Assembly (NCBI GenBank): GCA_039804225.1
Contig: JBDLWN010000005.1
Coordinates: forward strand, 1-43,202
Source of the DNA: Chloroflexota bacterium
GTDB lineage: Bacteria; Chloroflexota; Limnocylindria; Limnocylindrales; Limnocylindraceae
DNA length: 43,202 nucleotides
Direction of reading: 5' to 3'
The notes beneath the pieces were generated by a model. It made no database searches. It was not told where the DNA came from and saw only the letters and a program-made list of their open reading frames with translations. Both the position numbers and the translations under genes were made by a program. Numbering within the stretch: position 1 is the stretch's first letter; the number at the start of each line of letters is the position of its first letter. Of the stretch, positions 8,353 to 22,560 are shown one piece after another.

Positions 8353-9050
8353 CACGCGATCCGAAGTTCAGCAACCTTCCTGAGGTTCAGCCAGATGGCA
8401 GTATTCAGTCGCCCACCACTGTCGGCAACACGCTGTGGAGCACCGACGACCCACGCGCATACGGCGGACTTCCACTTGAGGCACATCCGAACCTAGAGCT
8501 CGCGCGATACGACGCAACGGGCGACGGCCGCGTTGATGATGCACGCTGGGGCGGCGCGCTCTCTGCCATTCCAACAAAGGCCGACGTTGTGCTCGATCTG
8601 ATTCGCGCCAACAGCCTCTGGCCACTGCTCTCTGGTCTCGCCTGCTGCGCCATTGAGATGATGTCGACAGCAACGCCAAAGAACGACATTGATCGCTGGG
8701 GCATGTTCCCTTTCCGTGCCAGCCCACGTCAGGCCGACGTGTTGATCGTTGCCGGAACACTCACGACAAAAATGGCTGAGCCACTCATTCGCTTGTGGGA
8801 GCAGATGCCTGAACCGAAGTGGGTCGTTGCGATGGGCGACTGCACCTGCTCCGGTGGACGCTACAAGCGCAGCTACTCCGTGGTGCAGGGAATTGATCGC
8901 GTCATGCCTGTTGACGTGTACATCCCCGGGTGCCCACCGCGACCAGAGGGACTGATTTACGGAATGATGAAGTTGCAGCAGTTGGTAAAAGATCGACGCG
9001 GCCACTGGCCAGAGCGCGCGATCGGTCCAACAGTTCCGAAGGGGATCTAA
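8343..9050 (+). CDS. nuoB: NADH-quinone oxidoreductase subunit B (cluster N2), with an N-terminal extension of about 55 aa
   Basis: [41 protein letters not shown] and PGCPPRPE are all present, so all N2 Cys ligands are retained. The start ATG overlaps the nuoA stop by 10 nt. Confidence 0.93.
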
Positions 9051-9602
9051 GTGGATCGCCGACTCGCTGCGCTGTTGCAAGAGAAGGTTGGCGAGCGACT
9101 CCTTACACCGGTGCGCCAGCGATACGATGAGAGCGAAATCCGTGTGGCACTCAACGATGCGACCGACACGTTGCGCACGCTGCACGACGATCCATCGCTG
9201 CGATTTGAAATGCTGATTGACCTCTGCGGTGTTGATACCGGCGAAGAGATGCAGGTTGTGTATCACCTCTCCTCATCCACAAGTGGCGATTGGCTGCGTG
9301 TGATCGTTCCAGGCCTTGATCGCGCTGCGCCACGAATTGCTTCGGCAACATTCATGTGGCCAGGTGCTGAATGGATGGAGCGCGAGGCCTACGACATGTT
9401 CGGCATTATTTTTGAAGGGAATCGCGATTTGCGTCGTATCTACATGCCAGACGATTTCCGCAGCTTCCCGCTGCGCAAAGATTTCTATCTCGCTGACGAC
9501 GCATCACGCTCACCAGCGGCTGGCGTGCGCAACATGGAGCGCGCGGGAACACCGGCCGATGCAACCGCAGCAACAGTGCTGCGCAAGAGCCCAGGGGTAT
9601 AG
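9051..9602 (+). CDS. nuoC: NADH-quinone oxidoreductase subunit C
   Basis: The GTG start follows the nuoB stop directly. LIDLCGVD...VVYHL...WPGAEWMEREAYDMFGIIFEGNRDLRRIYMPDDF..FPLRKDF is the NuoC/30-kDa signature. Confidence 0.92.
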   Translation: MDRRLAALLQEKVGERLLTPVRQRYDESEIRVALNDATDTLRTLHDDPSLRFEMLIDLCGVDTGEEMQVVYHLSSSTSGDWLRVIVPGLDRAAPRIASATFMWPGAEWMEREAYDMFGIIFEGNRDLRRIYMPDDFRSFPLRKDFYLADDASRSPAAGVRNMERAGTPADATAATVLRKSPGV

Positions 9603-9604
9603 CG

Positions 9605-10816
9605 ATGACCCAGCAGATGCGCCCATCACTCGACGATCCGCGAGTAGCGATTCCCGCCGAATCAACGTGGTACGAGCCGGCGCCAATTCCACAAACGGAG
9701 CGACAGGCGGAGTTCCTCACGCTGCGTGAAGGCGAGATGTTTGTGAACATGGGGCCGCAGCACCCATCAACACACGGCGTGCTCCGCGTGATTATCAAGG
9801 TGAATGGCGAGAAAGTCGTTGACCTCGATCCGGTGCTCGGCTATCTGCACCGCGGCGTGGAGAAGCTTTGCGAGAACGCCGACTATCACCAGGCGATCTG
9901 CTACACCGACCCACTCGAATATGTGAGCTCGCTCTTCTGCGAAGCGGCACCAGTTGCCGCCTTTGAAAAGTTGATGGATGTTGATGTGCCACGCCGCGCG
10001 CAGTACATCCGCGTGCTAACGATGGAATTGAACCGCATCGCGAGCCACACCCTCTTTCAGGGGTGGATGGCGCTCGACCTCGGTGGCATCACGCCAATTC
10101 TCTGGGCATTCATTGAACGCGACGAGATCGTCGACATGCTTGCGGCCCTCACCGGCCAGAAGCTCCTCTACAACTACTACCGAATCGGCGGGGTGAACGG
10201 TGACTTGAACCACGAGTTCATGAGTCGTCTCGGCACCTGGATGAGCCGCGCCGCCGCTCAGATTGATTCAAACCTGGCCCTGATCAACGAGAACGAGATC
10301 TTCGTGCGGCGCACGCGCGGCCTCGGCGTTCTTGACGCAAAGACCGCCGTCAAAATGGGGGTCACCGGCCCAAACCTGCGCGCGAGCGGTGTGCCGTTTG
10401 ACCTGCGCCGCGACCGCCCGTATCTCGTCTACCCGGAGCTCGAATTCGACGTGCCAACGCGCGACGAGGGCGACTCGCTGGCGCGCTACCTGGTGCGCAT
10501 GGACGAGATCAAACAGTCGATCCGCATCATTGACCAGGTCCTTCACGAGATGCCCGATGGCCCAGTGATGGCGAAGTTGCCGCGCCTTCTTCGTCCGCGA
10601 CCGGGCCGCGCATTCGGCGCCGTTGAGGGGCCGCGCGGCGTCTATGGCACCTACGCCATTAGCGACGGCACCGATCAGCCATTCCGCATGCGCATTCACG
10701 ACCCATCATTTGTGCACCTGCAACTTGTTGGACCGCTCACCAAGGGGAATCTCATCGCCGACACCATGGCGGTGATGGCAAGCCTTGACCCAGTCATGGG
10801 CGGAGTCGACAAGTGA
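9605..10816 (+). CDS. nuoD: NADH-quinone oxidoreductase subunit D
   Basis: NMGPQHPSTHGVLRVIIKVNGEKVVDLDPVLGYLHRGVEKLCE... and the C-terminal IHDPSF..LQ...L.KG..IAD..A...SLDPVMGGVDK are the NuoD/49-kDa signature. Confidence 0.95.
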   Translation: MTQQMRPSLDDPRVAIPAESTWYEPAPIPQTERQAEFLTLREGEMFVNMGPQHPSTHGVLRVIIKVNGEKVVDLDPVLGYLHRGVEKLCENADYHQAICYTDPLEYVSSLFCEAAPVAAFEKLMDVDVPRRAQYIRVLTMELNRIASHTLFQGWMALDLGGITPILWAFIERDEIVDMLAALTGQKLLYNYYRIGGVNGDLNHEFMSRLGTWMSRAAAQIDSNLALINENEIFVRRTRGLGVLDAKTAVKMGVTGPNLRASGVPFDLRRDRPYLVYPELEFDVPTRDEGDSLARYLVRMDEIKQSIRIIDQVLHEMPDGPVMAKLPRLLRPRPGRAFGAVEGPRGVYGTYAISDGTDQPFRMRIHDPSFVHLQLVGPLTKGNLIADTMAVMASLDPVMGGVDK

Positions 10817-12153
10817 GCGGCGCATCAATGACGTGGAATCGACTGACGCCAGCCGGCCGCGCACTAGCGGTGCTGCTCCCCGTTCTCGCTATTGGTGGCG
10901 CGCTCACCACGCTCCTCCTCGCCACATTTGGTGGCGCTATCGCCGCAACAATTGGCGCAAATCTGCCGATCGTGCGCTTCCTCGTTGCCGCCGTTGTCAC
11001 CTTCCTCATCTCAGTGCCCGTTGCATTCCTCTTGATTTATATGGAGATGAAGATCATCGCGCTCATGAACTTGCGCATTGGACCCGATCGCATCGGACCA
11101 GCAGGCGCAGTGATGAGTGTGGTGCACGGCCTCAAGGTGCTCATGAAAGAGGACTACACGCCACCGAGCGTTGATGTGCCGGTCTTCACCCTTGCGCCTG
11201 TGGTCGTTTATCTCGCAAGTTTCATGACCCTGCTGGTGATTCCGTTTGCACCAGAGCTCACCAGTATGGGCTTCGAGCTTGGACTTCTCTACTTCTTCGC
11301 GATCGGTGGGCTCAGCGTCGTTGGCCTGATGATGGCGGGCTGGTCGTCGTTCAATAAGTACTCGCTGCTCGGCGGCATTCGCGCCGCAGCACAGGCTATC
11401 AGCTACGAGATTCCGCTGACCCTCTCTGTGGTGGGCATCGTGATCCTTACCGGCACGCTCTCACTACCGAAGATCGTCGCTGCACAAGATGGTTCGTTCC
11501 TTGACTGGTTCATCTTCCGCCAGCCACTTGCGGCGATCATCTTCTTTATCGCAATCACCGCAGAGGCAAACCGCACCCCGTTCGACAACGCCGAGGCCGA
11601 CCAAGAGATCGTTGCCGGGTTCGCCACCGAGTATTCGGGGATGCGCTTCGGATTCTTCTTCTTCGCGGAGTACGTCAACGTCTTCATCGTCTCGGCACTC
11701 TTTAGCGCCGTCTTCCTCGGTGGGTCAAACCCACCGATTCACATTGACCTGAATCCGCAGATCCTGATCGACCTCAGTGCGCTCGGCATCGGGCTGCCAC
11801 TCATTGCAGGTCTCGCACCAGTTGTGGGCACGCTGCTCTTCGCCGCACCGATCTGGTTCGCGAGTTCGCGCATCAAGGGTTGGCAGGCACTCGTTGCCGG
11901 ATTCCTGATCTTTGGTGGCGTGTCGACCGCAGCGGTCGGCATCTGGGCCTTTGTGATGCTTCCGCCAGTGGCCAGCCTCATCTGGTTCCTGATCAAAACC
12001 TTCTCGCTCGTCTTCATCTTTGTTTGGATGCGCGGCACACTGCCACGCGCACGCATTGACCAGCTGATGGGCTTCGCGTGGAAGTGGCTCTTGCCAGCAT
12101 CGCTGCTAAACATTTTTGCAACGGCGTTTGCCGTGCTGATTGCGGGGAGCTAA
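10813..12153 (+). CDS. nuoH: NADH-quinone oxidoreductase subunit H, enlarged to 446 aa
   Basis: RIGPDRIGPAGAVMSVVHGLKVLMKEDYTP, GWSSFNKYSLLGGIRAAAQAISYEIPL, TAEANRTPFDNAEADQEIVAGF.TEYSGMRFGFFFFAEY and WMRGTLPRARIDQLMGFAWKWLLP are NuoH motifs. The GTG at 10813 overlaps the nuoD stop (GTGA). Confidence 0.93.
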   Translation: MSGASMTWNRLTPAGRALAVLLPVLAIGGALTTLLLATFGGAIAATIGANLPIVRFLVAAVVTFLISVPVAFLLIYMEMKIIALMNLRIGPDRIGPAGAVMSVVHGLKVLMKEDYTPPSVDVPVFTLAPVVVYLASFMTLLVIPFAPELTSMGFELGLLYFFAIGGLSVVGLMMAGWSSFNKYSLLGGIRAAAQAISYEIPLTLSVVGIVILTGTLSLPKIVAAQDGSFLDWFIFRQPLAAIIFFIAITAEANRTPFDNAEADQEIVAGFATEYSGMRFGFFFFAEYVNVFIVSALFSAVFLGGSNPPIHIDLNPQILIDLSALGIGLPLIAGLAPVVGTLLFAAPIWFASSRIKGWQALVAGFLIFGGVSTAAVGIWAFVMLPPVASLIWFLIKTFSLVFIFVWMRGTLPRARIDQLMGFAWKWLLPASLLNIFATAFAVLIAGS

Positions 12154-12155
12154 CC

Positions 12156-12380
12156 ATGCCAAGAATTCCTGGCACCGGACTGCTATCGGGGATGCGCCTC
12201 ACACTGACGCGCTTCTTCCAGCCGAAGCGCACGGTGCTGTATCCGGAGGTGAAGCCAGACATTGCTCCGCGCAACCGTGGCCGACTCGAACTAGTCACCG
12301 ACGAGCACGGCACGCTGAAGTGCGAGACCTGTTTCCAGTGCGCGCAGGCATGCCCAATCGAATGCATTGACATGGGCGGC
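12156..12380 (+). other. NuoI N-terminal half-domain (amphipathic N-terminus plus the first CxxCxxCxxxCP, nt 12321-12356)
   Basis: See the parent CDS. Similarity to NuoI ends right after CPIECIDMGG; no second Cys motif follows in this ORF. Confidence 0.75.
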
Positions 12381-12977
12381 ACCGACACGAAGGGGCGCTT
12401 CGCCGTGCATTGGGGCCCCGCCGAACAGTACGCAGAGCGACGCGAAGAGTCGGCGATGCGCCGCTCCGGTCGAACCGTCTCTGATGCTGCTGCTGCAACT
12501 GGGGCGACGATCAACACCGCGAAGGTTGACGAGATTCTTGAAGCGCACGACTACGACCCGCATCACATGCTCGCAATCCTTGAAGAGATCCAGGCCGCCT
12601 ACGGCTACCTGCCAGTGGATGCACTGAAGCGAGTGAGCCGCGCTACCGGCGCCTGGTACGCCATGGTCTACGGCACCGCCACCTTCTATAAGCACCTCGC
12701 ATTCGAGCCAGGGGTGACCCGTTCGATCGCCGTCTGCCGCTGCGCTAACTGCCTCGTCTCTGGGGCGGGCTCAGTGATGGGCACCCTCAGCTACGAATTC
12801 GGCACCGAGTTCGGCCGGGCGATCCCGTGGAGCAACCTGCGCCTCGAGTCGCTTCCGAGCCACCTTCCTGACGCCCCATCGCCATTGGTCGTCATTGATG
12901 GGGAGCCGCAGCGTGACCTGAGTGCCAAGAACGCCGCCAGCTGGGCCGCCGCACTTGCCGGCAGGTACGCCGCATGA
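12156..12977 (+). CDS. nuoI-nuoE: Chimeric subunit: the N-terminal half of NuoI (first 4Fe-4S motif only) fused through a linker of about 45 aa to a NuoE-like thioredoxin-fold domain
   Basis: The ATG at 12156 lies 2 nt after the nuoH stop, with GGGGAG upstream. aa 1-75 read LTLTRFFQPKRTVLYPEVKPDIAPRNRGRLELV...KCETCFQCAQACPIECI, the NuoI N-terminus plus a single CxxCxxCxxxCP. aa ~122-273 read ILEAHDYDPHHMLAILEEIQAAYGYLPVDALKRVSRATGAWYAMVYGTATFYKHLAFEPGVTRSIAVCRCANC, the NuoE layout. The stop overlaps the next gene (ATGA). Confidence 0.85.
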   Translation: MPRIPGTGLLSGMRLTLTRFFQPKRTVLYPEVKPDIAPRNRGRLELVTDEHGTLKCETCFQCAQACPIECIDMGGTDTKGRFAVHWGPAEQYAERREESAMRRSGRTVSDAAAATGATINTAKVDEILEAHDYDPHHMLAILEEIQAAYGYLPVDALKRVSRATGAWYAMVYGTATFYKHLAFEPGVTRSIAVCRCANCLVSGAGSVMGTLSYEFGTEFGRAIPWSNLRLESLPSHLPDAPSPLVVIDGEPQRDLSAKNAASWAAALAGRYAA

Positions 12978-14233
12978 AGCGACTGAACGCCCCCAAGGGA
13001 TGGAGCCAGCTCCTCTTCGTGGCGCCGACCGAGCCGTGGGCGGCACTCCGCGCCGCCGCGTCGGCGGGGGCCGCTGGTACGACCGCAACCCTGATCGCCG
13101 CCGGCCTTCGCGGCCGTGGCGGCGGCGGCTTCCTTACTGGAGCTAAGTGGCAGGCGACCGCCGCCGAGCCAGCGAGCCAGTACTTCGCCGTGGCGAACGG
13201 CTACGAATCCGACCCCGCCGTCTTCACCAACCGCCTCCTCATGGAGGAGAATCCACAGGCAATTGTCGAAGGCCTCGCTATTGCTGCTCTTACGGTGGGT
13301 GCCCGCGAAGCGTTCATCGCCGTGCGCGCCGAATACACAGAAGCGATCAAACGACTTGAAGCGGTCATCGCCAACGCCGAACGCGAGGGCATCCTCGGGG
13401 CCACGCTGCTGGGCACCGGCCGCGAACTGATCATCACCGTTCGCCCACTCCAAGGCTCCAGCATGATCGGCGAAGAGACGGTGTTGATGAAGGCGCTCGC
13501 CGGCAAGCGCGGCCAGCCAGAGCAGACCCCGCCATACCCATCAGAGGTCGGCTACCTCGGCAAGCCAACCGCCGTGAACAACGTCGCCACACTCGCTGCG
13601 GTGCCGTGGATCCTCAACAACGGCGCAGAGGCCTTCGCACAGATTGGCGACTCCGCACAGCCAGGCACCGTGCTCGTGCAGATCAGTGGTTCGGTCGCGA
13701 ACCCTGGCGTCATTGAAGTACCGACCGGCACGCCACTCAACGAGATCATCGCGGCAGCGGGCGGCACTGCAAGCGGCGCTTCGATCAAGGCACTACTCGC
13801 TGGTGGGCCAACGGGCGGATTTATTCCGGCGAACCTTTTCGGCGGCACCCCCTATAGCGGCGCGGGCCTCAAGGGTGTTGGCGCACACATCGGCTCGGGC
13901 GCACTCCTCGCACTCGACAACTCGGTCGCCATTCCAGAGCTCGCCACCATGCTGACGCGCTGGTGTGCCGACGAGGCGTGCGGCAAGACCATTCCGTGCC
14001 GCATCGGCACACGCCGGCTCGCCGAGATCGGCCAGCGCTTTGTTGACGGCTTGGCCGGCCCCGCCGATGCAGAGCGGCTGCAGAAGCTCGCCGCCGATGT
14101 CACTGATAGCGCCCTCTGCGCACATGAGGCGCTTGCGCCAAGCCCGCTCCTCACGGGGGTGCGATACTTTGCCTCTGAGTTTGGACCTGCCGTTGCCGCA
14201 TCGTCGGCAACACCAACGAGCGGACGGAGCTGA
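12974..14233 (+). CDS. nuoF: NuoF-like (51-kDa/HydB/StnB-type) flavoprotein subunit, divergent
   Basis: GLRGRGGGGFLTGAKW, ANGYESDPAVFTNRLLME, GSSMIGEETVLMKALAGKRGQPEQTPPYP, GKPTAVNNVATLA and DEACGKTIPCRIG...ALCAHE align to the NuoF motif series (GLRGRGGAGFPTG, NADESEPG, GAGAYICGEE, RxKPPFP, PTxxNNVET, ESCGKCxPCREG...C). Several substitutions fall at ligand positions. Confidence 0.85.
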   Translation: MKRLNAPKGWSQLLFVAPTEPWAALRAAASAGAAGTTATLIAAGLRGRGGGGFLTGAKWQATAAEPASQYFAVANGYESDPAVFTNRLLMEENPQAIVEGLAIAALTVGAREAFIAVRAEYTEAIKRLEAVIANAEREGILGATLLGTGRELIITVRPLQGSSMIGEETVLMKALAGKRGQPEQTPPYPSEVGYLGKPTAVNNVATLAAVPWILNNGAEAFAQIGDSAQPGTVLVQISGSVANPGVIEVPTGTPLNEIIAAAGGTASGASIKALLAGGPTGGFIPANLFGGTPYSGAGLKGVGAHIGSGALLALDNSVAIPELATMLTRWCADEACGKTIPCRIGTRRLAEIGQRFVDGLAGPADAERLQKLAADVTDSALCAHEALAPSPLLTGVRYFASEFGPAVAASSATPTSGRS

Positions 14234-14235
14234 TC

Positions 14236-16782
14236 ATGGCCGACCTGATTGATCGACCGGCAAGCGCAGTAACACCAGTTTCGCGCACGATTACTCCAGC
14301 GCCACCGGCCGAGGTCGCCGTCGACAAGTTGCTCACCACACGCAGCCCACAACGACCGCAGCGAACGCCAACCTTCTACGTCGAGATCGATGGACAGAAG
14401 CTTGAAGCGTTTGAAGGACAGACCATCCTTGAGGTGTGCCGCGCGAACGGCATTGAGGTACCAACGCTCTGCTACGACCCGAAACTGCCAGGGTTCGGCG
14501 CCTGCCGCATGTGTGTCGTTGATGTCGAAGGATGCGACCAGCCTTCCATCAGCTGTTCAGCGAAGGCGGAGCCAGCACAGGTCGTATCAACGCAGACCGA
14601 TCGCATTCGCGAGATTCGCCGCACCAACCTTGAGCTGATCTTCAGCGACCACAACGCCTACTGCTTGCCGCCATGCCAGAACAAGTGCCCGAGCCACATT
14701 GACATCCCTGGATTCTTGAAGGCGAACGCAGAGTCGCAGTTCCGCGAGTCGGCGCGAATCTTCAAGCGCACCATTCCATTCCCAAGCATCCTTGGCCGCG
14801 TCTGTCCGGCGCCATGCGAAGACCACTGCCGTCGCGACGAGGTAGACGAGGCGATCGCCATTCGCGACAGCCACCGTTACGCCGGCGACCAGGTGTTGAA
14901 GGCAATGTGGGACGAAGATCTCGATCCACCTGTGCCGTTTGAGCTGCAGCCGAAGACTGGTAAGCGCGTCGCAGTGATTGGTTCTGGCCCAGCGGGCGCA
15001 TCTGCTGCGTACTACCTCCTTGTTGCTGGACATGACGTCACCATCTTTGAGAAAGATCCAGAGCCAGGTGGCATGTTGCGCTACGGCATTCCGCAGTACC
15101 GACTACCAAAGATTGAGGTGCTTGACGGCGAGTACCAGTCCATCACGCGACTCGGTGGCCGCTTTGAGTGCGGCAAGATGCTTGGCCGTGACTTCACCGT
15201 TGCTGACCTAAAGGCGCAGGGCTACGACGGCGTCGTTGTTGCAATCGGCTGCTACGACACCAACGACCTCGGCATCCCGGGCGAAGATGCCGACGGCGTG
15301 ATTGACGGCCTCGACTATCTCCACACCGCCGCACTCGGCCTCACCTACCCAGGTCACGAGGGGAGCCGCGTCGTTGTTGTTGGTGGCGGCTACACCTCCA
15401 TGGACTGCTCCCGAACGAGTGTGCGACAAGGGGCTAAGGAGGTCACCCTCGTCTACCGCCGCGACATGAAGGACATGCCAGCCGCCGACGAAGTGCACGA
15501 GATGATCGAAGAGGGGGCGCGCGCCATCTTCCAGGCAGGCCCAACCCGTGTCGTCACCGATGCGAACAACAAGGTGATTGGCCTCGAGTTCATTCGCATG
15601 CAGCTCGGCGCACCAGACGCTTCGGGCCGCCGCCGACCAGAGCCAGCACCCGGCACGGAATTCATTATCGAGTGCGACCGCATTTTGAAGGCGATCGGCC
15701 AGGGCCCCGACATGACCTGGGCAAGTGTCGGCGCAGATGGTGTTGCAACCACGAAGAACGGCCGACTTAAGGCAGATGCTGTGACCTTCCAGACCGGCCG
15801 CGACGGCGTCTTCGGCTGTGGCGACCTGCGCAATGGCGCAACAACCGTCGTCGCCTCGATCGCTGATGGCCGACGCTGCGCCTACGCCGTTGACGCATAT
15901 CTGCAGGGGCTCGACCTGTCGGAGATTCGCAACCGACAGACACTCGCTGAGCCACAGCCGGAGTTCTTGAGCATCGTGCCGTTCACCGCCGAGGTGAAGG
16001 AGCCGCGCTTGCGCCTGAAGGCACTTCCAGCCGAAGAGCGCAAGAACGACTACATCCAGTACGAAATCCCCTACACCAAGCCCGAGGTGATGGCGGAGAG
16101 CACACGTTGCTTGCAGTGCACCTGTGAAGCGATCGGCTTCTGTGACCTGCGACGACTCGGTATTGAATACGGCACCACACTGAAGACGCTTGAGAAGGAT
16201 CACCACGGCGGCGCTGGATTCCGTTCCATTACCGAAAACCGCTGGACCGGAGCAAACCATGACTACATTCGCGACGACTCGCACGCATTTATCTTGCGCG
16301 AGCCATCACGCTGCATCGACTGCGGTCGCTGCGCCAACGTGTGCGCCGAGGTTGTTGGTGCCGCCTGCTACGACTTCATGCGCACCGGTTTCGACACGCT
16401 CGTCACCACGCCGCTTGACATGAGCTTGAACGAGTCGCCATGCGTCTCGTGCGGACGATGTGCAGAAACCTGCCCAACCGGCGCACTGATGCCGAAGCCG
16501 CGAATTCTCACTAAGTACGAGGTCGACGAGTCGCGCTGCATCCTTTGCGGCATCTGCGTTGACGCTTGCCCATACGACGCGCTCCGTAGCGGCTTTGATT
16601 TTGAACTCGCGCACACCGATCGAAGCGAGCCGATGATTGACCTCATCGCGCTCTCAAAGTTGGAACGCACATCAGAGGCAACCTTCATTCGCGGCGAAGC
16701 AAACTGGGAGAACACCGTTGCGGGTCGACGCTACGATCCGGCACGACAGCTTCCGGTGCTGCCGCAGAGCCTCCGGAAGTAG
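14236..16782 (+). CDS. Chimeric 848-aa Fe-S flavoprotein, in order: NuoG/HoxU-type 2Fe-2S domain; GltD/NfnB-type FAD-NAD(P)H oxidoreductase; N5-like 4Fe-4S; hydrogenase-type 2x[4Fe-4S] domain; C-terminal half of NuoI. There is no molybdopterin-like domain.
   Basis: FYVEIDGQKLEAFEGQTILEVCRANGIEVPTLCYDPKLPGFGACRMCVVDVEG...SC = NuoG N-terminal 2Fe-2S. GRVCPAPCEDHC, KRVAVIGSGPAGASAAYYL, PGGMLRYGIPQYRLPK, VVVVGGGYTSMDCSRTSVRQGAKEVTLVYRR, GAPDASGRRRPEP and GVFGCGDLRNGATTVVASIADGR = GltD small-subunit series. CLQCTCEAIGFCDLRRLGIEYG (16108-) is N5-like. CIDCGRCANVC (16312-) plus CVSCGRCAETCPTGAL (16441-) form a HydA/HoxU-type dicluster. YEVDESRCILCGICVDACPYDALRSGFDFELAHTDRSE (16516-) is the NuoI second half. 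Confidence 0.85.
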   Translation: MADLIDRPASAVTPVSRTITPAPPAEVAVDKLLTTRSPQRPQRTPTFYVEIDGQKLEAFEGQTILEVCRANGIEVPTLCYDPKLPGFGACRMCVVDVEGCDQPSISCSAKAEPAQVVSTQTDRIREIRRTNLELIFSDHNAYCLPPCQNKCPSHIDIPGFLKANAESQFRESARIFKRTIPFPSILGRVCPAPCEDHCRRDEVDEAIAIRDSHRYAGDQVLKAMWDEDLDPPVPFELQPKTGKRVAVIGSGPAGASAAYYLLVAGHDVTIFEKDPEPGGMLRYGIPQYRLPKIEVLDGEYQSITRLGGRFECGKMLGRDFTVADLKAQGYDGVVVAIGCYDTNDLGIPGEDADGVIDGLDYLHTAALGLTYPGHEGSRVVVVGGGYTSMDCSRTSVRQGAKEVTLVYRRDMKDMPAADEVHEMIEEGARAIFQAGPTRVVTDANNKVIGLEFIRMQLGAPDASGRRRPEPAPGTEFIIECDRILKAIGQGPDMTWASVGADGVATTKNGRLKADAVTFQTGRDGVFGCGDLRNGATTVVASIADGRRCAYAVDAYLQGLDLSEIRNRQTLAEPQPEFLSIVPFTAEVKEPRLRLKALPAEERKNDYIQYEIPYTKPEVMAESTRCLQCTCEAIGFCDLRRLGIEYGTTLKTLEKDHHGGAGFRSITENRWTGANHDYIRDDSHAFILREPSRCIDCGRCANVCAEVVGAACYDFMRTGFDTLVTTPLDMSLNESPCVSCGRCAETCPTGALMPKPRILTKYEVDESRCILCGICVDACPYDALRSGFDFELAHTDRSEPMIDLIALSKLERTSEATFIRGEANWENTVAGRRYDPARQLPVLPQSLRK
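14644..15915 (+). other. GltD/NfnB-like flavoprotein module inserted inside the NuoG-like Fe-S chain
   Basis: It begins at SDHNAYCLPPCQNKCPSHIDIPGFL. Here a NuoG-type HxxxC runs straight into the GltD-type C...CP...IP motif. It ends near ADGRRCAYAVDAYLQGL. Two Rossmann GxGxxG/A motifs are present (14968-, ~15370-). Confidence 0.8.
16498..16782 (+). other. NuoI C-terminal half-domain (second CxxCxxCxxxCP, nt 16537-16572, plus the FE.A...R tail)
   Basis: YEVDESRCILCGICVDACPYDALRSGFDFELAHTDRSEPMIDL follows the canonical NuoI pattern Y.ID...CI.CG.C.EACP.DAI.....FE.A...R..L. Confidence 0.75.
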
Positions 16783-16785
16783 CCT

Positions 16786-17346
16786 ATGCCGCTCCCCGAC
16801 GTCATCCCGTTTATCGGCCTCGGCTGGTCAGACGTCCTCTTCTTACTGCTGAGCGGCGTAGTCCTTGCCGCAGCGATCGGCGTGGTCTTTGGCCGTGACA
16901 TCATCAAGAGCGGCTTATTCTTGATCCTCACCCTTGGCGCACTCGCAGGTATCTACGTAATGTTGGGCGCCGCGATCGTTGCGGGCGCACAGGTGCTCGT
17001 CTACATCGGTGCAATCAGTGTGCTCATCCTTTTTGCCATCATGCTCACGCAGTCAAAGGTTGCGCCAGTAAAGCTGGCGTTCCAGACACAGGTGGCGCCT
17101 GCCGCCCTTGCCTCGGTCCTACTCGCTGTGATCTTCGGCCTCGCGTTTGGAAGCACAGACTGGGGCTCATCAGTGTTCGCCGATACGCCAGCCGCAACTG
17201 GTACGGCCCCTGTTGCCGCCGCACTCTTCGGCCCGTACCTGCTTGCATTTGAGATCGCAAGCGTGCTCATCCTCTCTGCCGTGATAGGTGGCCTCTATCT
17301 CGCGATGGAACCAAAGACGGACGAAGTGGGCGAGGAGGGGCAGTGA
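16786..17346 (+). CDS. nuoJ: NADH-quinone oxidoreductase subunit J
   Basis: 186 aa, 5 TM. AGAQVLVYIGAISVLILFAIMLT is the NuoJ signature (AxxQxxVYxGAxxVLxxFVxMxL). It starts 3 nt after the upstream stop. Confidence 0.9.
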   Translation: MPLPDVIPFIGLGWSDVLFLLLSGVVLAAAIGVVFGRDIIKSGLFLILTLGALAGIYVMLGAAIVAGAQVLVYIGAISVLILFAIMLTQSKVAPVKLAFQTQVAPAALASVLLAVIFGLAFGSTDWGSSVFADTPAATGTAPVAAALFGPYLLAFEIASVLILSAVIGGLYLAMEPKTDEVGEEGQ

Positions 17347-17663
17347 GCCAAATCGCTGGGAACCTGGAGCCATATCTCGTCCTCTCAGGGATGCTCTTTG
17401 CTATCGGCTCCTTCGGCTTCCTTGCACGTCGAAACGCAATCACGATGTTGATGAGTATTGAGTTGATGCTGAATGCCGTGAACCTTGCCGCACTCGCGTT
17501 CGGCGCATTTATTCCGACACTCGCAGGGGAGGGGGCAGCCTTTGCGCTGTTGATTATCGCCGTGGCGGCGGCTGAGGCCACCGTCGGCCTGGCGATCGTG
17601 ATTGCCATCTTCCGTAACCGGAAGACACCGCTGGTTGACGAGTACGACACGATGAGGCAGTAG
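17343..17663 (+). CDS. nuoK: NADH-quinone oxidoreductase subunit K
   Basis: 106 aa, 3 TM. RRNAITMLMSIELMLNAVNLAALAF...IAVAAAEATVGLAIVIAIFRNRKT is the NuoK signature, including both conserved Glu. GTGA overlap with nuoJ. Confidence 0.92.
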   Translation: MSQIAGNLEPYLVLSGMLFAIGSFGFLARRNAITMLMSIELMLNAVNLAALAFGAFIPTLAGEGAAFALLIIAVAAAEATVGLAIVIAIFRNRKTPLVDEYDTMRQ

Positions 17664-17666: not shown

Positions 17667-19616
17667 ATGATCACTGCAGAGACCCTGGTCGAAGCGGGCG
17701 CCCTTCCGGGCTACGCGCCGCTCCTCCTTCTCCTCCCGCTGCTCGGCTTCGCCTTCACGGCGGCGGTTGGCCGACGCCTCGGCAAACTGGCCCACATCGT
17801 GCCGCTCGGGGCGATCGTCGCCACCTGGGCACTCTCCATGAGCCTGGCGATCCCCGCCCTCACAGGGGGCCTCGGTGAGGCGGGTGCCTCGATGAAGCTC
17901 TTCACCTGGATCGCCTCGGGCGACCTGAGCTTCGGGCTCGGCCTGCACGTCGACGCCCTTACGGGAGCCCTCCTTCTCGTAGTAACCACGGTCGGCGCCC
18001 TCGTGCACCTCTATAGCGTCGGCTACATGAGTCACGACAACGGCTATTGGCGCTTCTTCGCCTACCTGAACCTCTTCATGTTCTCAATGATGCTCCTCGT
18101 TCTCGCCGATAACCTCCTCGTCGTCTTTGCCGCCTGGGAGCTCGTCGGCCTCTCCTCGTACCTGCTGATCGGCTTCTGGTACACGAAGACCGCACCAGGC
18201 TTGGCCGCCAAGAAGGCCTTCATTACAAACCGAGTCGGTGACGTTGGCTTCGTTCTCGGACTGATGGGTCTCGTGGTCGTCTTCGGCTCACTCGACATCA
18301 GTACGGTGCTTGCGGGGGTTGTAGCGGGCGAGCTCGTTGGTCCAGCAGCGACGGTGATTGCCTTACTGATCTTCTGCGGCGCGGTTGGGAAGTCGGCGCA
18401 GTTCCCACTTCACGTCTGGCTCCCCGACGCCATGGAGGGGCCAACTCCGGTCAGCGCCCTCATCCACGCAGCGACCATGGTGAACGCGGGCGTCTATCTC
18501 GTGGCACGAATGAGCCCACTCTTCGCTGCAAGCCCTGAGGCAATGATCATTGTTGCCGCAATCGGCATCTTCACCGCGATCTTCGCGGCCTCAATTGCGC
18601 TCACGCAGACCGACATCAAGCGCGTGCTCGCCTTCTCAACCCTCTCGCAGCTCGGCTACATGTTTGCCGCACTCGGTGTTGGTGCCTGGGTTCCCGCAAT
18701 CTTCCATCTCGTCACGCACGGATTCTTCAAGGGGCTCCTCTTCCTCGGCTCAGGTTCGGTGATTCATGCGGTGAACGGCGAGCAAGAGATGACAAAGATG
18801 GGTGGCCTCTGGCGCAAGATTCCTATTACGTACGCCACGATGTTGGTCGGAACCGTAGCGATTGCTGGCCTACCGCCACTCGCCGGGTTCTGGTCAAAAG
18901 ACGAAATTCTCACCGAAGCATTCAAATTTGGATACGCGTGGGTGTGGCTCGTCGGCATGATCGTTGCCGCCATGACCGCCTTCTACATGTTCCGTCTCAT
19001 GGGACTCACCTTCTGGGGGAAGAGCCGCGTGCATGACGAATCACATGTACACGAATCGCCATGGACGATGACGCTGCCGCTGATCATTCTGGCGGTGCCA
19101 TCGATTGCCATTGGCGCAGCACTCGGCTTCCCAGTCGCAGACGGCGTCATTGTGCATGCGCTTGAACCAATCTTCCATCCGGCGGATGAGATACTCGGCA
19201 TCGAACATAAGCCTTGGGAACTGTTTGGCATCGGCGGACTTCTCATGCTTGGGAGCGTTACCGTTGCCTCAATCGGCACAGCGGTCGGCGTGCGCCTCTT
19301 CCGCAGTGACAACAACGAGTTCCTTGGTCGCGTCACCAAGCGCTTGCAGCCGCTCTACGACGGAAGCCGCAACCGTTGGTACTTTGACGACCTCAATGAT
19401 CTCGTATTCGTGCGCTTTGGACGAAAGTTTTCGAACGCACTCTGGTGGTTTGACCGCCGCGTTGTTGACGGCACTGTGAACGGCGTTGCTTCGCTCACTT
19501 CGAGTGGCGGTCGCGGCTTGCGGCAGATCCAAACCGGTCGCGTGCAAAACTATGCACTCGGCATCGCATTTGGCCTTGTGGCCATTGCTGCCGCTTACCT
19601 GGTGATTGCGGGATGA
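17667..19616 (+). CDS. nuoL: NADH-quinone oxidoreductase subunit L (antiporter-like, with C-terminal lateral helix region)
   Basis: 649 aa. WELVGLSSYLLIGFWY, GKSAQFPLHVWLPDAMEGPTPVSALIHAATMVNAGVYL and FSTLSQLGYMF are NuoL/Mrp-type motifs. Confidence 0.93.
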   Translation: MITAETLVEAGALPGYAPLLLLLPLLGFAFTAAVGRRLGKLAHIVPLGAIVATWALSMSLAIPALTGGLGEAGASMKLFTWIASGDLSFGLGLHVDALTGALLLVVTTVGALVHLYSVGYMSHDNGYWRFFAYLNLFMFSMMLLVLADNLLVVFAAWELVGLSSYLLIGFWYTKTAPGLAAKKAFITNRVGDVGFVLGLMGLVVVFGSLDISTVLAGVVAGELVGPAATVIALLIFCGAVGKSAQFPLHVWLPDAMEGPTPVSALIHAATMVNAGVYLVARMSPLFAASPEAMIIVAAIGIFTAIFAASIALTQTDIKRVLAFSTLSQLGYMFAALGVGAWVPAIFHLVTHGFFKGLLFLGSGSVIHAVNGEQEMTKMGGLWRKIPITYATMLVGTVAIAGLPPLAGFWSKDEILTEAFKFGYAWVWLVGMIVAAMTAFYMFRLMGLTFWGKSRVHDESHVHESPWTMTLPLIILAVPSIAIGAALGFPVADGVIVHALEPIFHPADEILGIEHKPWELFGIGGLLMLGSVTVASIGTAVGVRLFRSDNNEFLGRVTKRLQPLYDGSRNRWYFDDLNDLVFVRFGRKFSNALWWFDRRVVDGTVNGVASLTSSGGRGLRQIQTGRVQNYALGIAFGLVAIAAAYLVIAG

Positions 19617-21124
19617 ACGACATGCCGATCCTGTCGCTGATCACCTTCCTTCCGCTCCTTGGCGCGCTCGGCATCGCAGCACTCCCATCGTCACGTCCGA
19701 GCCTGATTCGTTTTGCTGCACTCGGGGTGTCACTGATCACCTTCGCACTGAGCCTCGGCATGCTGGTTGGCATTCGCGGCCAGAGTGGTGAATTTGCCTT
19801 CAGCGAACAGCTCTCGTGGATTCCATCGTTCGGCATCACGTATCACCTTGGTGTGGACGGGCTCTCTGGCGCACTTGTTGTCTTGACGACGCTGCTCAGC
19901 TGGATCTGCATCCTGGCGAGCTTCGGTCCAATTCAGACTCGCGTGAAGGAGTACTTCATTAGCTTCCTCATCCTCGAGACGGGCATGCTCGGTGTCTTCT
20001 TGGCGCTCGACCTATTCCTCTTCTACATCTTCTGGGAGATCGTGCTCGTGCCGATGTATCTGATCATCGGCATCTGGGGCGGGGCCGACCGCATCTACGC
20101 CACAATCAAGTTCGTCCTCTACACGCTCGTTGGATCACTCCTCATGCTTGTAGCGATCCTGGCGACGGCCTTTAGCCATCAGGCCGCGACAGGCTCATGG
20201 ACCGGGGCGTTCGACTTGCTGGCGTTGCGGGGCACGATCACCGATCCAACGCTGCAGATCCTCGGGTTTGCCGCCTTCGCGCTCGCCTTTGCCATCAAGG
20301 TGCCAATGTTCCCGTTCCATACGTGGCTCCCCGATGCGCACGTACAGGCCCCAACCGCAGGCTCGGTCATCCTCGCCGGCGTGCTCTTGAAGCTTGGCGG
20401 CTACGGCTTCATTCGATTTGCGATCCCGCTCTTCCCAGACGGCGCGCAGCTCTTCGCGCCGCTCATGATCGTTCTCTCGGTGATCGCCATCATCTATGGC
20501 GCACTTGTGGCGATCGTGCAGACCGACCTCAAGAAACTTATCGCGTATAGCTCCGTTAGCCACATGGGCTTCGTAACGCTCGGCATCTTCACCTTCAATC
20601 AGCAGGGTGTCGACGGCGCAATCTTGCAGATGCTTAACCACGGCCTCATCACGAGCGGACTCTTCTTGCTCGTCGGAATTGGCTACGAACGCACCCATGA
20701 TCGCGAGATCGCCAAGATGGGCGGCTGGGCGGTGCGCACCCCCGTGTACGCTGCGCTCTTCGGCTTCTTTCTCTTCGCGTCAGTTGGCCTTCCTGGCCTC
20801 TCGGGCTTCGCTGGTGAATTCCTGGTGCTGCTCGGAGCCTTCATCGCCAACCCAATGGTCGCAGGTGCATCAACAGTTGTGATGATCCTTGCTGCGGTCT
20901 ACTTGCTCTACATGTACCAGCGCGTCTTCACCGGACCACTCTCACCGTTCTTAAAGGGTCTCGGCTCAAAGCTGACCGATGTCACACCAACCGAGATCTT
21001 GACGCTCGCCCCCCTTGCGGCGCTGGTCGTGATCTTTGGTGTAATGCCAACGCTGTTGACGAGCTCTTTTGCAAAAAGCGTTGAGATCTTCCTGATGTCA
21101 GCTATCAGTGTGGTCGGACCATGA
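19613..21124 (+). CDS. nuoM: NADH-quinone oxidoreductase subunit M
   Basis: 503 aa. FYIFWEIVLVPMYLIIGIWGG, KVPMFPFHTWLPDAHVQAPTAGSVILAGVLLKLGGYG and IAYSSVSHMGFV. ATGA overlap with nuoL. Confidence 0.93.
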   Translation: MNDMPILSLITFLPLLGALGIAALPSSRPSLIRFAALGVSLITFALSLGMLVGIRGQSGEFAFSEQLSWIPSFGITYHLGVDGLSGALVVLTTLLSWICILASFGPIQTRVKEYFISFLILETGMLGVFLALDLFLFYIFWEIVLVPMYLIIGIWGGADRIYATIKFVLYTLVGSLLMLVAILATAFSHQAATGSWTGAFDLLALRGTITDPTLQILGFAAFALAFAIKVPMFPFHTWLPDAHVQAPTAGSVILAGVLLKLGGYGFIRFAIPLFPDGAQLFAPLMIVLSVIAIIYGALVAIVQTDLKKLIAYSSVSHMGFVTLGIFTFNQQGVDGAILQMLNHGLITSGLFLLVGIGYERTHDREIAKMGGWAVRTPVYAALFGFFLFASVGLPGLSGFAGEFLVLLGAFIANPMVAGASTVVMILAAVYLLYMYQRVFTGPLSPFLKGLGSKLTDVTPTEILTLAPLAALVVIFGVMPTLLTSSFAKSVEIFLMSAISVVGP

Positions 21125-22560
21125 ACAACGACCTGCTCACCCTCGCGCCACTCATCACCGTCGCCCTTGGCGCGATTGCCGTCCTTGCGAGCGACATGAT
21201 TACGCCAAATCGAAACCATGCGCCGGTTGCCGTTGCGCTTGCCGCACTCGGCGTTACCGCAGCACTGCTCATTAATCAGGGGGGCAGTACTGCTAGCGCT
21301 CTTGGTGGCAGCTACGTCGCTGGGCCATTCGTTGCATTTATCGGCCTGCTCGGAATTTCAATCGTGGCCATCACGCTCCTGATTGCGCCGGCATACCTTG
21401 CTGCGCGCAAGTATCCAACGGCTGAACTCGCCGCGACGCTCCTCTTCGCCCTTGCTGGTGCAATTCTGCTTGGCGCCGCAACTGATCTCATCACACTCTT
21501 CATTGGCCTCGAGCTGATGGTTATCCCTGGGTATGTCCTCGCTGGATACGCAAAGCGCGACCCGCTGAGCACCGAGGGTGCGGTGAAGTACTTCCTGCTC
21601 GGTAGCTTCTCGAGCGCTATCCTGCTCTTCGGCATCGTGGTGCTGTGGGGCGTTGCAGGTACCGCGTCACTCAGTGGTATCGCAACGGTGCTCGCATCTG
21701 GAGAGGCGAACGCAGGACTCGCTGTTGCACTCGCGCTGATCACCACAGGGTCGGCCTTCAAGATTGCGGCGGTTCCGTTCCACTACTGGACTCCCGACGC
21801 CTATCAAGGCTCCCCAACGCCAATCACGGGGTATCTCTCAGTCGGCCCGAAGGTTGGCGCATTTGTTCTGCTCATCAAGCTCTTTGTGATTGCGCTCGCG
21901 CCACTCGCGACGCTATGGATCCCCGTGATGGTGGTGCTGGCGGCGGCAACCATGACGCTCGGCAACCTCGTAGCTCTCACGCAGAGCAACGTGAAGCGCA
22001 TGCTCGCCTACTCGTCGATCGCGCACACCGGATACCTGATGGTTGGCATCGTTGCGGCGGGCGCAGGAGAGGCGGCGGGAATCGCCGGCATTCTCTTCTA
22101 CGCTGCGGCATACGCGTTTATGAACCTCGGTGCGTTTGCATTCCTGACTGCGCTCCAAGGCCGACCTGGCGCCACGACGCAGCTCTCTGACCTTGCTGGG
22201 CTCGGTCGCAAGCATCCACGCATGGCAATCCTCGCGACAATCTTCCTGTTGAGCCTCACCGGTATTCCACCGACGGCGGGCTTCTTCGCCAAGACCTACG
22301 TGATCCTGGCCGCGGTGCAAGCGGGCGGGCCAGCCACGATCCTCGCCGTGATTGCCGTGCTCAACGCTGCCATCGCCGCCTTCTACTACCTGCGCGTCAT
22401 CGTCTACCTCTTCATGCGCGACCCGGCGGATCCAGCGGTTCAAGTGGCCGAGGGGTCAATGCTGCGCGCCGGCCTGCTGATCGCCGCCATCGGCACCGTA
22501 GCGCTCGGCCTCGCCCCGACCCCGATCATCGAGGCGGTCATTCAAGCCCTCGCTCGGTAG
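21121..22560 (+). CDS. nuoN: NADH-quinone oxidoreductase subunit N
   Basis: 479 aa. GLELMVIPGYVLAGY, KIAAVPFHYWTPDAYQGSPTPITGYLSVGPKVGAF and LAYSSIAHTGYLMVG. ATGA overlap with nuoM. Confidence 0.93.
   Translation: MNNDLLTLAPLITVALGAIAVLASDMITPNRNHAPVAVALAALGVTAALLINQGGSTASALGGSYVAGPFVAFIGLLGISIVAITLLIAPAYLAARKYPTAELAATLLFALAGAILLGAATDLITLFIGLELMVIPGYVLAGYAKRDPLSTEGAVKYFLLGSFSSAILLFGIVVLWGVAGTASLSGIATVLASGEANAGLAVALALITTGSAFKIAAVPFHYWTPDAYQGSPTPITGYLSVGPKVGAFVLLIKLFVIALAPLATLWIPVMVVLAAATMTLGNLVALTQSNVKRMLAYSSIAHTGYLMVGIVAAGAGEAAGIAGILFYAAAYAFMNLGAFAFLTALQGRPGATTQLSDLAGLGRKHPRMAILATIFLLSLTGIPPTAGFFAKTYVILAAVQAGGPATILAVIAVLNAAIAAFYYLRVIVYLFMRDPADPAVQVAEGSMLRAGLLIAAIGTVALGLAPTPIIEAVIQALAR

Follow-up and report, generated by a model that had tools for sequence, protein, structure and literature searches.

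The window analysed here is a 43,202-nucleotide stretch of DNA from Candidatus Limnocylindrus (Chloroflexota; assembly GCA_039804225.1, contig JBDLWN010000005.1), and within it we examined an operon for respiratory complex I together with one of its products, an 848-residue iron-sulphur (Fe-S) flavoprotein that we refer to as the target. The operon comprises 13 genes in the order A B C D H [I_N::E] F [StnC-like::I_C] J K L M N, in which I_N and I_C stand for the two halves of NuoI, and the start and stop codons overlap or are two to four bases apart across H, I_N::E, F, the target and J (Table 1). The Q-module (NuoB, C and D, with N2 ligands and quinone-site motifs) and the P-module (A, H, J, K, L, M and N) are encoded together. 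Taken as a whole, the arrangement reads as an 11-subunit-type operon in which a stnABC-like E-F-StnC cassette interrupts nuoI in frame, separating its two cluster motifs. This insertion, which splits NuoI, is the structurally unusual part of the locus.

Along the target, Pfam models matched a [2Fe-2S] domain (Fer2_4, residues 49-121, E 6e-17), the N-terminal 2x[4Fe-4S] domain of GltD and DPD (Fer4_20, residues 143-222, E 4e-17, above cut-off) and a nucleotide-binding module (Pyr_redox_2, residues 244-545, E 3e-29, above cut-off), followed by a weak match to Fer4_Nqo3 (residues 686-751) and a ferredoxin dicluster (Fer4_7, residues 736-782). The best NCBIfam match was PRK12814, a Fer2-GltD fusion family (residues 49-705, E 1e-162); the NuoG equivalog TIGR01973 scored 83.4 bits against a cut-off of 470, with 2 stretches reported, the best at residues 49-183. 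In the PDB, one alignment joined residues 49-779 to Caldicellulosiruptor NfnA (9bov_A, E 4.5e-165) and one joined residues 49-780 to Sporomusa ovata StnC (8oh5_C, E 1.3e-142); archaeal NfnA (9n5u_A, E 1.8e-137) was matched as well, and residues 144-558 matched NfnB (4ylf_B, E 2e-78) and GltD (2vdc_G, E 3e-68). GltD-type modules bind flavin adenine dinucleotide (FAD) and NAD(P)H, and the hallmarks of the GltD/NfnB type, namely Fer4_20, an FAD Rossmann motif (GxGxxG) and an NADPH Rossmann motif (GGGxxxxD ... YRR), are present in the target.

The original prediction, drawn from the sequence without database searches, had described a Fe-S wire of the HoxU/HydA-N type into which a GltD-type FAD/NAD(P)H module is inserted, and the Pfam, NCBIfam and PDB alignments agree with it, Fer2_4, Fer4_20 and Pyr_redox_2 being matched as it had anticipated. 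Its claim that a molybdopterin-like domain is missing also held: no molybdopterin family occurred among the 25 listed of 29 matched Pfam families, and the listed domains plus two short tails account for all 848 residues, leaving a chain too short for such a domain. The strings that it quoted, ELIFSDHNAYC (residues 133-143), CLPPCQNKCP (143-152), GRVCPAPCEDHC (187-198) and CLQCTCEAIGFC (625-636, nucleotide 16108), lie where it had placed them. The insertion of GltD into a NuoG-like chain is real, but it is not peculiar to this protein, since the 'GltD inside NuoG' layout is the already known standard BfuA architecture of Nfn-Bfu enzymes (StnC/NfnA; PMC9304861, PMC11829005). The Sporomusa-type transhydrogenase that it named for comparison does have this build: StnC consists of a [2Fe-2S] domain (1-101), a GltD-like NADPH/FAD module (102-565), NuoG-type [4Fe-4S] clusters and an FdhF-like domain (683-1172; PMC10482914), and aligns to target residues 49-780. 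When compared with the N5 motif HxxxCxxCx5C of NuoG, the target shows H139-x3-C143 running into the GltD-type CLPPCQNKCP, and a separate four-Cys motif at 625-636, which presumably binds a [4Fe-4S] cluster joining the GltD clusters to the wire.

Three CxxCxxCxxxC motifs occur in the target, at residues 693-703, 736-746 and 768-778. The first two form the HydA/StnC dicluster, which had been recognised in the original prediction as hydrogenase-type; the third had gone unnoticed and is the C-terminal half of NuoI. Models of NuoI matched the target with their C-terminal half only (TIGR01971 positions 71-117 of 121 at residues 756-802), and they matched the 273-residue product of the I_N::E gene with their N-terminal halves only: TIGR01971 positions 1-64 of 121 and PRK05888.1-1 positions 14-85 of 180 aligned to residues 38-102 and 36-106, respectively, of the open reading frame (ORF) 12078-12977, equal to residues 12-76 and 10-80 of the 273-residue protein. 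PDB matches to NuoI/TYKY spanned residues 7-74 of this protein, the N-half alone reaching about 36 bits. For the C-half alone, the best single-domain PDB match was NuoI (8qby_I, 49.9 bits; 7ar7_I, 49 bits), polyferredoxins outscoring it only through summed short repeats. When the two halves were joined, they aligned to Arabidopsis TYKY 21-144 in one unbroken stretch (74 bits, E 1e-19). Given that the third target motif is unpaired and that the 273-residue protein carries exactly one cysteine motif of this kind (CETCFQCAQACP, residues 56-67), the motifs add up to one NuoI. The features that mark NuoI, two CxxCxxCxxxCP motifs and an N-terminal membrane-arm segment, do not share a chain here: motif 1 and the N-terminus lie on the ORF starting at 12156, and motif 2 and the FE.A segment lie apart from them on the target. 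Consequently, NuoI is divided between two proteins, with its N-half on the NuoE-like protein and its C-half on the target.

A canonical TYKY query matched each locus twice, hitting the NuoE-like gene at its 5' end and the target gene at its 3' end, and with this query no separate nuoI gene was found in the window or in any locus; in two loci from Thermoleophilia (Actinomycetota), described below, it additionally matched the C-terminal dicluster of HydB. A naive 'contiguous NuoI' test had suggested an intact nuoI in 22 loci, which we attribute to gapped extension of the N-half match and, in the two Thermoleophilia loci, to the HydB dicluster; the N-half protein of the window carries only the one cysteine motif. 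We also considered that the last motif of the target, to which StnC aligns weakly as far as residue 780, might be a remnant of the first FdhF-domain cluster. This was rejected because its spacing is CxxCxxCxxxCP and not CxxCxxxC, because the FDFELAH segment after it is NuoI-like, and because the best single-domain matches are to NuoI.

Table 1. Coordinates of the complex I operon genes and of the domains of the target and its partners (positions in the window).
Feature	Positions	Strand	Evidence
nuoA	7996-8352	+	Pfam
nuoB	8343-9050	+	Pfam; CC...C...CP N2 ligands kept
nuoC	9051-9602	+	Pfam
nuoD	9605-10816	+	Pfam; GPQHP and GYLHRG kept
nuoH	10813-12153	+	Pfam
NuoI-N::NuoE-like ORF, 273 residues, ATG at 12156	12156-12977	+	Pfam, NCBIfam
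NuoI N-terminal half, residues 1-108 of the 273-residue protein: membrane-arm-facing N-terminus and first motif CETCFQCAQACP	12156-12479	+	NuoI models; PDB NuoI/TYKY matches
NuoE/HydC-like remnant fused to the NuoI N-half	12531-12977	+	Pfam 2Fe-2S_thioredx; HydC alignment
NuoF-like flavin mononucleotide (FMN) subunit, 419 residues; N3/B1 motif CGKTIPC and LCAHE	12974-14233	+	PDB HydB/NfnB/StnB matches
Target: StnC/NfnA-like Fe-S flavoprotein fused to the C-terminal half of NuoI, 848 residues	14236-16782	+	ORF call; PDB 9bov_A and 8oh5_C matches
HydA-N/NuoG-type [2Fe-2S] domain, residues 49-135, Cys 79, 90, 93, 107; ends DH139NAYC143	14380-14640	+	Pfam Fer2_4; HoxU, NuoG and [FeFe]-hydrogenase N-terminal matches
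GltD/NfnB-type N-terminal Fe-S domain, residues 136-235; CLPPCQNKCP and CPAPCEDHC	14641-14940	+	Pfam Fer4_20; StnC alignment
FAD and NADPH Rossmann domains, residues 236-560; VIGSGPAG (FAD), VVGGGYTSMD and LVYRRDMKDMPA (NADPH-type), GCGD...ADGR	14941-15915	+	Pyr_redox_2; NfnB and GltD matches
Four-Cys motif C625-x2-C628-x-C630-x5-C636 (CLQCTCEAIGFC), counterpart of StnC CLECGC...C	16096-16185	+	Alignment to StnC and Csac NfnA
HydA/NuoG-type 2x[4Fe-4S] domain, residues 686-755; CIDCGRCANVC and CVSCGRCAETCP	16291-16500	+	Fer4_Nqo3 686-751; TIGR02512 FeFe_hydrog_A 686-758; StnC alignment
NuoI C-terminal half, residues 756-802; YEVDESRCILCGICVDACPYDALRSGFDFELAH, the second CxxCxxCxxxCP motif of the N6a/N6b ferredoxin domain	16501-16641	+	TIGR01971; PDB NuoI matches
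nuoJ	16786-17346	+	Pfam, NCBIfam
nuoK	17343-17663	+	Pfam, NCBIfam
nuoL	17667-19616	+	Pfam, NCBIfam
nuoM	19613-21124	+	Pfam, NCBIfam
nuoN	21121-22560	+	Pfam, NCBIfam

Subsequently, we assessed the conservation of the locus. Close homologues of the target number in the thousands; in a collection of species-representative genomes, at least 480 of 600 stretches examined contained confirmed relatives, and the best 80 of these plus one other locus made up a synteny set of 81 loci. The best 80 were labelled Limnocylindrus/Limnocylindrales, Chloroflexota or Chloroflexia, with a few generic 'bacterium' or Anaerolineaceae entries; one locus, L002, was 98% identical to the window. Gene order around the target was identical in all 81 Limnocylindrales loci as far as the contigs reach, 59 of them being complete in that order; three more of the 81 differed only by a swap in the L/M/N order, in a best-hit assignment prone to confusing paralogues. 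Extraction guided by tblastn recovered NuoI-N::NuoE proteins from 75 loci (a regular expression recovered them from only 34), and the fusion was present in every one, with the first NuoI motif CETCFQCAQACPIECIDM unchanged in 74 and a V for I after CP in the other. A frameshift, an assembly artefact or chance was rejected as an explanation of the split, since 81 loci from independent assemblies, and a second phylum besides, preserve the target gene together with its neighbours.

Comparison of the window with distant Limnocylindrales revealed a conservation gradient within the complex. Identity over whole proteins was about 75% for the target, 77% for NuoB and 75% for NuoD, and fell to 53% for the NuoF-like subunit, the lowest of the 13. 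Within the target, it was highest in the four-Cys motif (97.5%), the dicluster (95%), the GltD Fe-S domain (90%) and the NuoI C-half (86%), followed by the FAD/NADPH domains (75%), the [2Fe-2S] domain (70%) and both tails (42%); the N-terminal half of NuoI on the 273-residue protein was 71-80% conserved. All the FAD, NADPH and Fe-S motifs of the GltD module, among them GSGPAG, GGGYTSMD, VYRRDMKDMPA and LVYRRDMKDMPA, are invariant in Limnocylindrales, and the FAD and NADPH motifs match the same stretches in the NADPH-using StnC and NfnA. The path from FAD to NuoI is thus 86-97% conserved, while the F subunit is trimmed and weakly conserved. In the alignment with StnC, His213 of the target (14872-14874), also invariant in Limnocylindrales, sits at the position of Lys170, and Ile157 corresponds to Cys114. 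Separately, residues 31-44 (14326-14367) form a conserved stretch, LLTT(R/Q)SPQRPQ, within an otherwise variable N-terminal extension, with L33, T35, P38, Q39, R40 and Q42 invariant; it may be a docking peptide.

The NuoF-like subunit encoded immediately upstream scored 298-301 bits against HydB, NfnB and StnB in the PDB, and 225-241 bits against NuoF of complex I, which points to HydB/StnB ancestry. All 76 Limnocylindrales F proteins examined were 380-460 residues long, and none of them carried ferredoxin motifs or the extra Fe-S domains of HydB. In the same 76 sequences, the N3/B1 motif (F residues 336-342) reads CGK[T/S/A]IPC instead of CxxCxxC, its second cysteine having been lost; the three remaining N3 cysteines are invariant, as are His384 and Glu385 of LC[D/A]HE (F residues 382-385). 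The altered site may hold a cluster ligated by three cysteines plus a histidine or other ligand, or a [3Fe-4S] cluster. The loop for FMN and NADH (GLRGRGGxGF) and GEET are retained.

A similar reduction was observed in the NuoE-like part, which kept the helical NuoF-binding segment (69% identity) and in which the thioredoxin-like [2Fe-2S] part has decayed (23%) or been deleted. When aligned with HydC, the window sequence (12711-12977) retains CRCANC, shows LPSHLPDAPSP opposite the CxxxC site, and lacks the second cysteine pair. There is no cysteine at the [2Fe-2S] site in 40 of the 75 relatives, and no complete four-Cys N1a/C1 site of NuoE was seen among the Limnocylindrales sequences examined. 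Many soil relatives have lost the thioredoxin-like part altogether, which leaves proteins of about 200-230 residues that contain no cysteine (for example, L001 8007-8663). Residues 73-108 of the NuoI-N::NuoE protein (12372-12479), following the first NuoI motif and patterned as (V)HWG..E.Y.ERR.ESA.RR.GR.V, are about 80% conserved in Limnocylindrales and without counterpart in Thermoleophilia. This segment may stand in for part of the NuoI fold, or it may touch the target.

Outside Limnocylindrales, the next full-length relatives in a library clustered at 50% identity were 35-45% identical StnC-like proteins, mostly of about 980-1400 residues and some shorter. Only one other cluster in that library ended in a NuoI-C tail, P0140 (816 residues, 42% identity), and its family, 982 proteins at E <= 1e-100, was labelled Thermoleophilia. 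Two Thermoleophilia loci, L082 and L083 (P0140 being L083 10001-12451), contain the same operon. Their I_N::E protein (253 residues) has kept all four NuoE cysteines, and their F protein (636-638 residues) is of the full HydB/StnB type: it begins with a [2Fe-2S] domain, has CGKCVPC as its canonical N3/B1 motif and carries a 2x[4Fe-4S] domain at the C-terminus; both loci thus possess the features of the B1-FMN-C1 flavobicluster, the Bfu core. Together with the PDB scores of the NuoF-like subunit, which lies nearer HydB/StnB/NfnB, the presence of this operon with a full HydB/StnB-type subunit strongly supports the proposal, made in the original prediction, that a Stn-like soluble module has been wired into complex I; the E, F and G components of the operon are of Bfu descent. 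Identity between the phyla ranged from 26 to 54% per subunit (NuoD 45%, target 44%, NuoL 52%, NuoI-N::NuoE 26%), a pattern consistent with a single insertion, after which the operon was inherited vertically, transferred as a whole, or both. Thermoleophilia would then display the earlier state, with the full Bfu core, and Limnocylindria the stripped one. Among 29 sampled Thermoleophilia, a histidine occupies the StnC Lys170 position in 28 and the LYRRSR.EMP motif is kept in 24. Six StnC-like library proteins of about 812-853 residues (P0132, P0152, P0168, P0191, P0192 and P0203) were considered as further members and rejected because they end in ...NN[IV]DHCARL inside the FdhF domain, which continues beyond; they are probably GltD-fused formate-dehydrogenase-type proteins whose gene calls were cut at a selenocysteine UGA.

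On these grounds, we consider it reasonably probable that the target serves a non-canonical respiratory complex I as its electron-input and connecting subunit, and that this complex is a proton-pumping NAD(P)H:quinone oxidoreductase that does not bifurcate and that NADPH would enter via the FAD site. Cofactor content, assembly, substrate specificity and direction are here predicted from the sequence, and it is the conserved motifs that suggest NADPH use, dual NADH/NADPH use and transhydrogenation. The operon would have arisen when a three-gene cassette of the stnABC/nfnABC (Nfn-Bfu) type was inserted in frame between the nuoI cysteine motifs of an 11-subunit-type operon, making the NuoI N-half the N-terminus of the NuoE-like protein and placing the C-half where the FdhF-like domain stands at the C-terminus of a StnC-like protein. 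In 2x[4Fe-4S] ferredoxin folds, each cluster takes three cysteines from one motif and the fourth from the other, so that in a two-chain NuoI each of the clusters would draw ligands from both proteins; the two halves would assemble in this manner into the usual ferredoxin domain (N6a/N6b). The two covalent links would tether the input module to NuoB/C/D/H, replacing the missing molybdopterin-like domain of NuoG.

NADPH would reduce the FAD of the GltD-like module, from which electrons would travel by way of the pair of GltD [4Fe-4S] clusters and the four-Cys cluster to the HydA-type dicluster. Beyond this point the path would rejoin that of complex I, in which the order is N6a, N6b, N2 and quinone: the dicluster would reduce N6a/N6b, then N2 in NuoB and finally quinone, driving proton pumping by NuoL/M/N. 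A second entry would be offered by NADH at the FMN of the trimmed HydB-like NuoF, with electrons joining by way of the altered N3 cluster and then the [2Fe-2S] cluster; this route probably still works, but under much weaker constraint. The shared Fe-S chain would permit NADH/NADPH transhydrogenation as well as reverse reduction of NADP+ driven by proton-motive force. Given the loss of the NuoE cluster and of the extra HydB clusters, the Limnocylindrus enzyme would be plain and non-bifurcating.

Several observations weigh against this interpretation. The NADPH-type second Rossmann motif has been lost in 5 of the 29 sampled Thermoleophilia, a degenerate subclade (P0140/L083, P0273, P0276, P0278 and P0344) that shows VVGDGFAA... 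and lacks YRR, yet in which protein, NuoI-C tail and operon all persist; the complex can evidently do without the NADPH site, at least where the HydB-type core is intact. Specificity for NADPH is suggested by the conservation of motifs shared with NADPH-using relatives, and NADH may still be the main donor, as the FMN/NADH motifs (GRGGxGF, GEET) are kept. In complex I, electrons leave for NuoI from N5. In Stn, the branch adjoining the StnC dicluster (C2/C1) is a dead end (PMC10482914). The NuoI C-half stands at the sequence position of the first FdhF cluster of StnC, and that the Stn dead-end branch would serve as the exit here is a guess. Finally, AlphaFold2 models were of low confidence, both for the target with a 12-sequence alignment (mean predicted local distance difference test (pLDDT) 34, predicted template modelling score 0.30) and for the joined NuoI halves as a single chain without alignment (pLDDT 32).

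The alternatives differ mainly in which flavin site is taken to work and in which direction. It could be that the GltD-type FAD site is the sole physiological entry, the complex being an NADPH:quinone proton pump in which the NuoF-like and NuoE-like proteins serve mainly as scaffolds that remain from the inserted cassette. We judge this rather unlikely: the NuoF-like protein indeed shows the lowest conservation of any subunit (53%, the target having 75%), the second N3 cysteine is gone in all 76 sequences, the NuoE cluster site is lost or deleted, and the [2Fe-2S] domain that would link N3 to the wire is the least conserved of the cofactor domains, but the GLRGRGGxGF loop and GEET persist, the three N3 cysteines and His384 are invariant, the NuoF-binding helical part of NuoE is 69% conserved, and the F gene has been kept in every locus. 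That the complex uses NADH alone, with the GltD-like domain as a structural or regulatory relic, possibly binding FAD/NADPH without turnover, filling the space of the molybdopterin-like domain and acting as a stabiliser, strikes us as very unlikely. The C-terminal domain of canonical NuoG, a catalytically dead relic, provides a precedent, and so do the five degenerate Thermoleophilia that retain protein and operon; against this stand the invariance of every FAD, NADPH and Fe-S motif of the GltD module in Limnocylindrales and the 90% conservation of its Fe-S domain, above that of the [2Fe-2S] domain in the NADH branch.

Complex I is reversible, and the two nucleotide sites here lie on one Fe-S chain, so the main task of the complex might be to make NADPH, laterally from NADH through the shared chain or from the quinone/quinol pool and proton-motive force, as a replacement for PntAB/Nfn in an aerobe. 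The descent of the module from reversible Nfn-Bfu transhydrogenases (PMC10482914, PMC9304861) would suit such a role. This proposal, which we hold to be quite unlikely as the main direction, is compatible with the favoured explanation rather than exclusive of it. A bifurcating or confurcating complex of the Nuo-Bfu type, coupling NAD(P)H, ferredoxin and quinone, has in its favour that Thermoleophilia keep the full BfuBC core (four NuoE cysteines, the HydB [2Fe-2S] and 2x[4Fe-4S] domains, CGKCVPC) and that a Nuo-Bfu enzyme has been predicted for other phyla (PMC9304861). For the window lineage, however, it seems exceedingly improbable. The minimal Bfu bifurcation site is the B1-FMN-C1 flavobicluster (PMC11829005), and its features have been lost: the window and 40 of 75 relatives lack the C1 [2Fe-2S] site, no complete one occurring among the sequences examined, B1 is altered in all 76 Limnocylindrales F sequences, and these F proteins, none above 460 residues, have no ferredoxin motifs. 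The confurcating option raised in the original prediction is thus unlikely in this lineage, with the NuoE [2Fe-2S] site and the extra HydB domains gone and N3/B1 altered.

Complex I normally takes its electrons strictly from NADH. An NADPH/FAD site that is conserved, apparently intact and wired to the quinone-reducing and pumping parts would add an NADPH route into respiration or, alternatively, NADPH synthesis driven by proton-motive force. The hosts concerned are Limnocylindria, their soil relatives and Thermoleophilia; within Limnocylindria, the SL56 cluster reaches about 5% of lake epilimnion prokaryotes (PMC6169038). The operon would record a second, independent gain of an NAD(P)H-oxidising module by the 11-subunit complex, inserted inside nuoI and not between nuoD and nuoH, and because two stages are preserved, the full Bfu core in Thermoleophilia and the stripped one in Limnocylindria, the modular-evolution hypothesis for complex I becomes directly testable. 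A ferredoxin split between its cluster motifs and rebuilt from two chains would, moreover, be an unusual natural case of inter-chain [4Fe-4S] ligation as an assembly device. More tentatively, we raise the possibility of an independently assembled complex I, in which an entire Nfn-Bfu operon was spliced into nuoI of the 11-subunit enzyme to give one membrane machine joining the NADPH, NADH and quinone pools to proton-motive force, the Thermoleophilia version adding the ferredoxin pool, with the module held by a ferredoxin domain whose two [4Fe-4S] clusters span two polypeptides. Such an enzyme would exemplify in nature how complex I can acquire an N-module, and would give abundant bacteria of lakes and soils a proton-pumping NADPH dehydrogenase/transhydrogenase.

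Elsewhere in the operon, NuoH is 446 residues long, compared with 371-375 in Thermoleophilia, and the 298 positions of the Pfam NADHdh model are spread over its residues 61-438, a spacing that implies an insertion; in NuoB, an extension of about 100 residues at the N-terminus precedes the Oxidored_q6 domain. Just upstream of nuoA lies a gene for an NDUFAF7-like methyltransferase (Pfam Methyltransf_28; 6616-7923, +), found likewise in a 77%-identical relative (L001 2213-3427), and the same association has been described for an actinobacterial 11-subunit complex I operon in a preprint (10.1101/2021.02.01.429150). Unrelated to the finding are a 1293-residue ORF at 25-3906 (+) with protein O-mannosyltransferase domains (PMT, PMT_4TMC) in its C-terminal half only, and, near the window end, a GmrSD_C restriction-endonuclease-like protein at 41760-42464 (+).

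Among known systems, StnC and NfnA are the closest characterised proteins. The target is 40-45% identical to them over residues 49-780 and follows the same order of [2Fe-2S] domain, inserted GltD module (two [4Fe-4S] clusters, FAD, NADPH site), four-Cys motif and HydA-type dicluster; the partner genes, NuoE-like and HydB/NuoF-like, stand in the same A-B-C order, and a (V/I)YRR...EMPA-type motif is common to the target and the NADPH-using StnC and Csac NfnA. In contrast to StnC, the target lacks the C-terminal FdhF-like domain (about 490 residues, StnC 683-1172), which StnC needs for tetramer assembly (PMC10482914), and carries half of NuoI instead. Lys170 of StnC, an unusual ligand of the FAD-proximal cluster that is reported to be strictly conserved in StnC sequences (PMC10482914), is His213 in the target and Glu in NfnB at this fourth-ligand position. 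Moreover, StnABC is a soluble tetramer, whereas the target is encoded inside a membrane complex I operon, and its partners, unlike those of StnABC/NfnABC, have lost the bifurcating features. GltD, NfnB (the large subunit of NfnSL) and the flavoproteins of the DPD domain I-III type share the Fer4_20 domain and the two Rossmann folds; in the target these form one domain of a larger wire protein, without an NfnA/GltB partner. NuoG (Nqo3, 75-kDa subunit) resembles the target in its N1b-type [2Fe-2S] domain, its ferredoxin-like [4Fe-4S] region, its position after nuoF and its role as the wire from flavin to NuoI. It differs in that the N5 motif HxxxCxxCx5C appears to be interrupted in the target by the GltD module, that the target keeps both clusters of the dicluster where NuoG keeps only N4, and that the target has FAD and NADPH sites and half of NuoI, and no molybdopterin-like domain.

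The operon itself matches the 11-subunit 'ancestral' operons nuoABCDHIJKLMN (Moparthi and Hagerhall 2011, PMC3144371) exactly in the order of its Q- and P-modules, A B C D H (I) J K L M N, and it shares the upstream NDUFAF7-like methyltransferase with one actinobacterial operon of this type; the 11-subunit operons possess an intact NuoI and no dedicated input module, whereas here the module lies within nuoI. Of the systems that have been proposed, Nuo-Bfu comes closest, a complex I predicted to have 14 subunits (A-N) with bifurcating BfuABC and described for Deferribacteres, Proteobacteria, Planctomycetes and Nitrospirae without mention of an NADP(H)-binding BfuA (Schut et al. 2022, PMC9304861). 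Both have a Bfu-type E/F/G module in the middle of the nuo cluster in place of NuoEFG, and both are proposed to be membrane-bound and proton-pumping with quinone as substrate. Unlike Nuo-Bfu, which has a separate NuoI, the present operon has 13 genes with NuoI split and fused, a BfuA of the Nfn (GltD) type, a cassette placed inside nuoI with in-frame fusions at both ends, hosts in Chloroflexota and Actinomycetota, and, in the window lineage, BfuB/C subunits that have lost their bifurcation features. In the literature on GltD-bearing or NuoI-split complex I, on complex I of Limnocylindria or Thermoleophilia, and on follow-ups of Nuo-Bfu, we found no published description of this arrangement.

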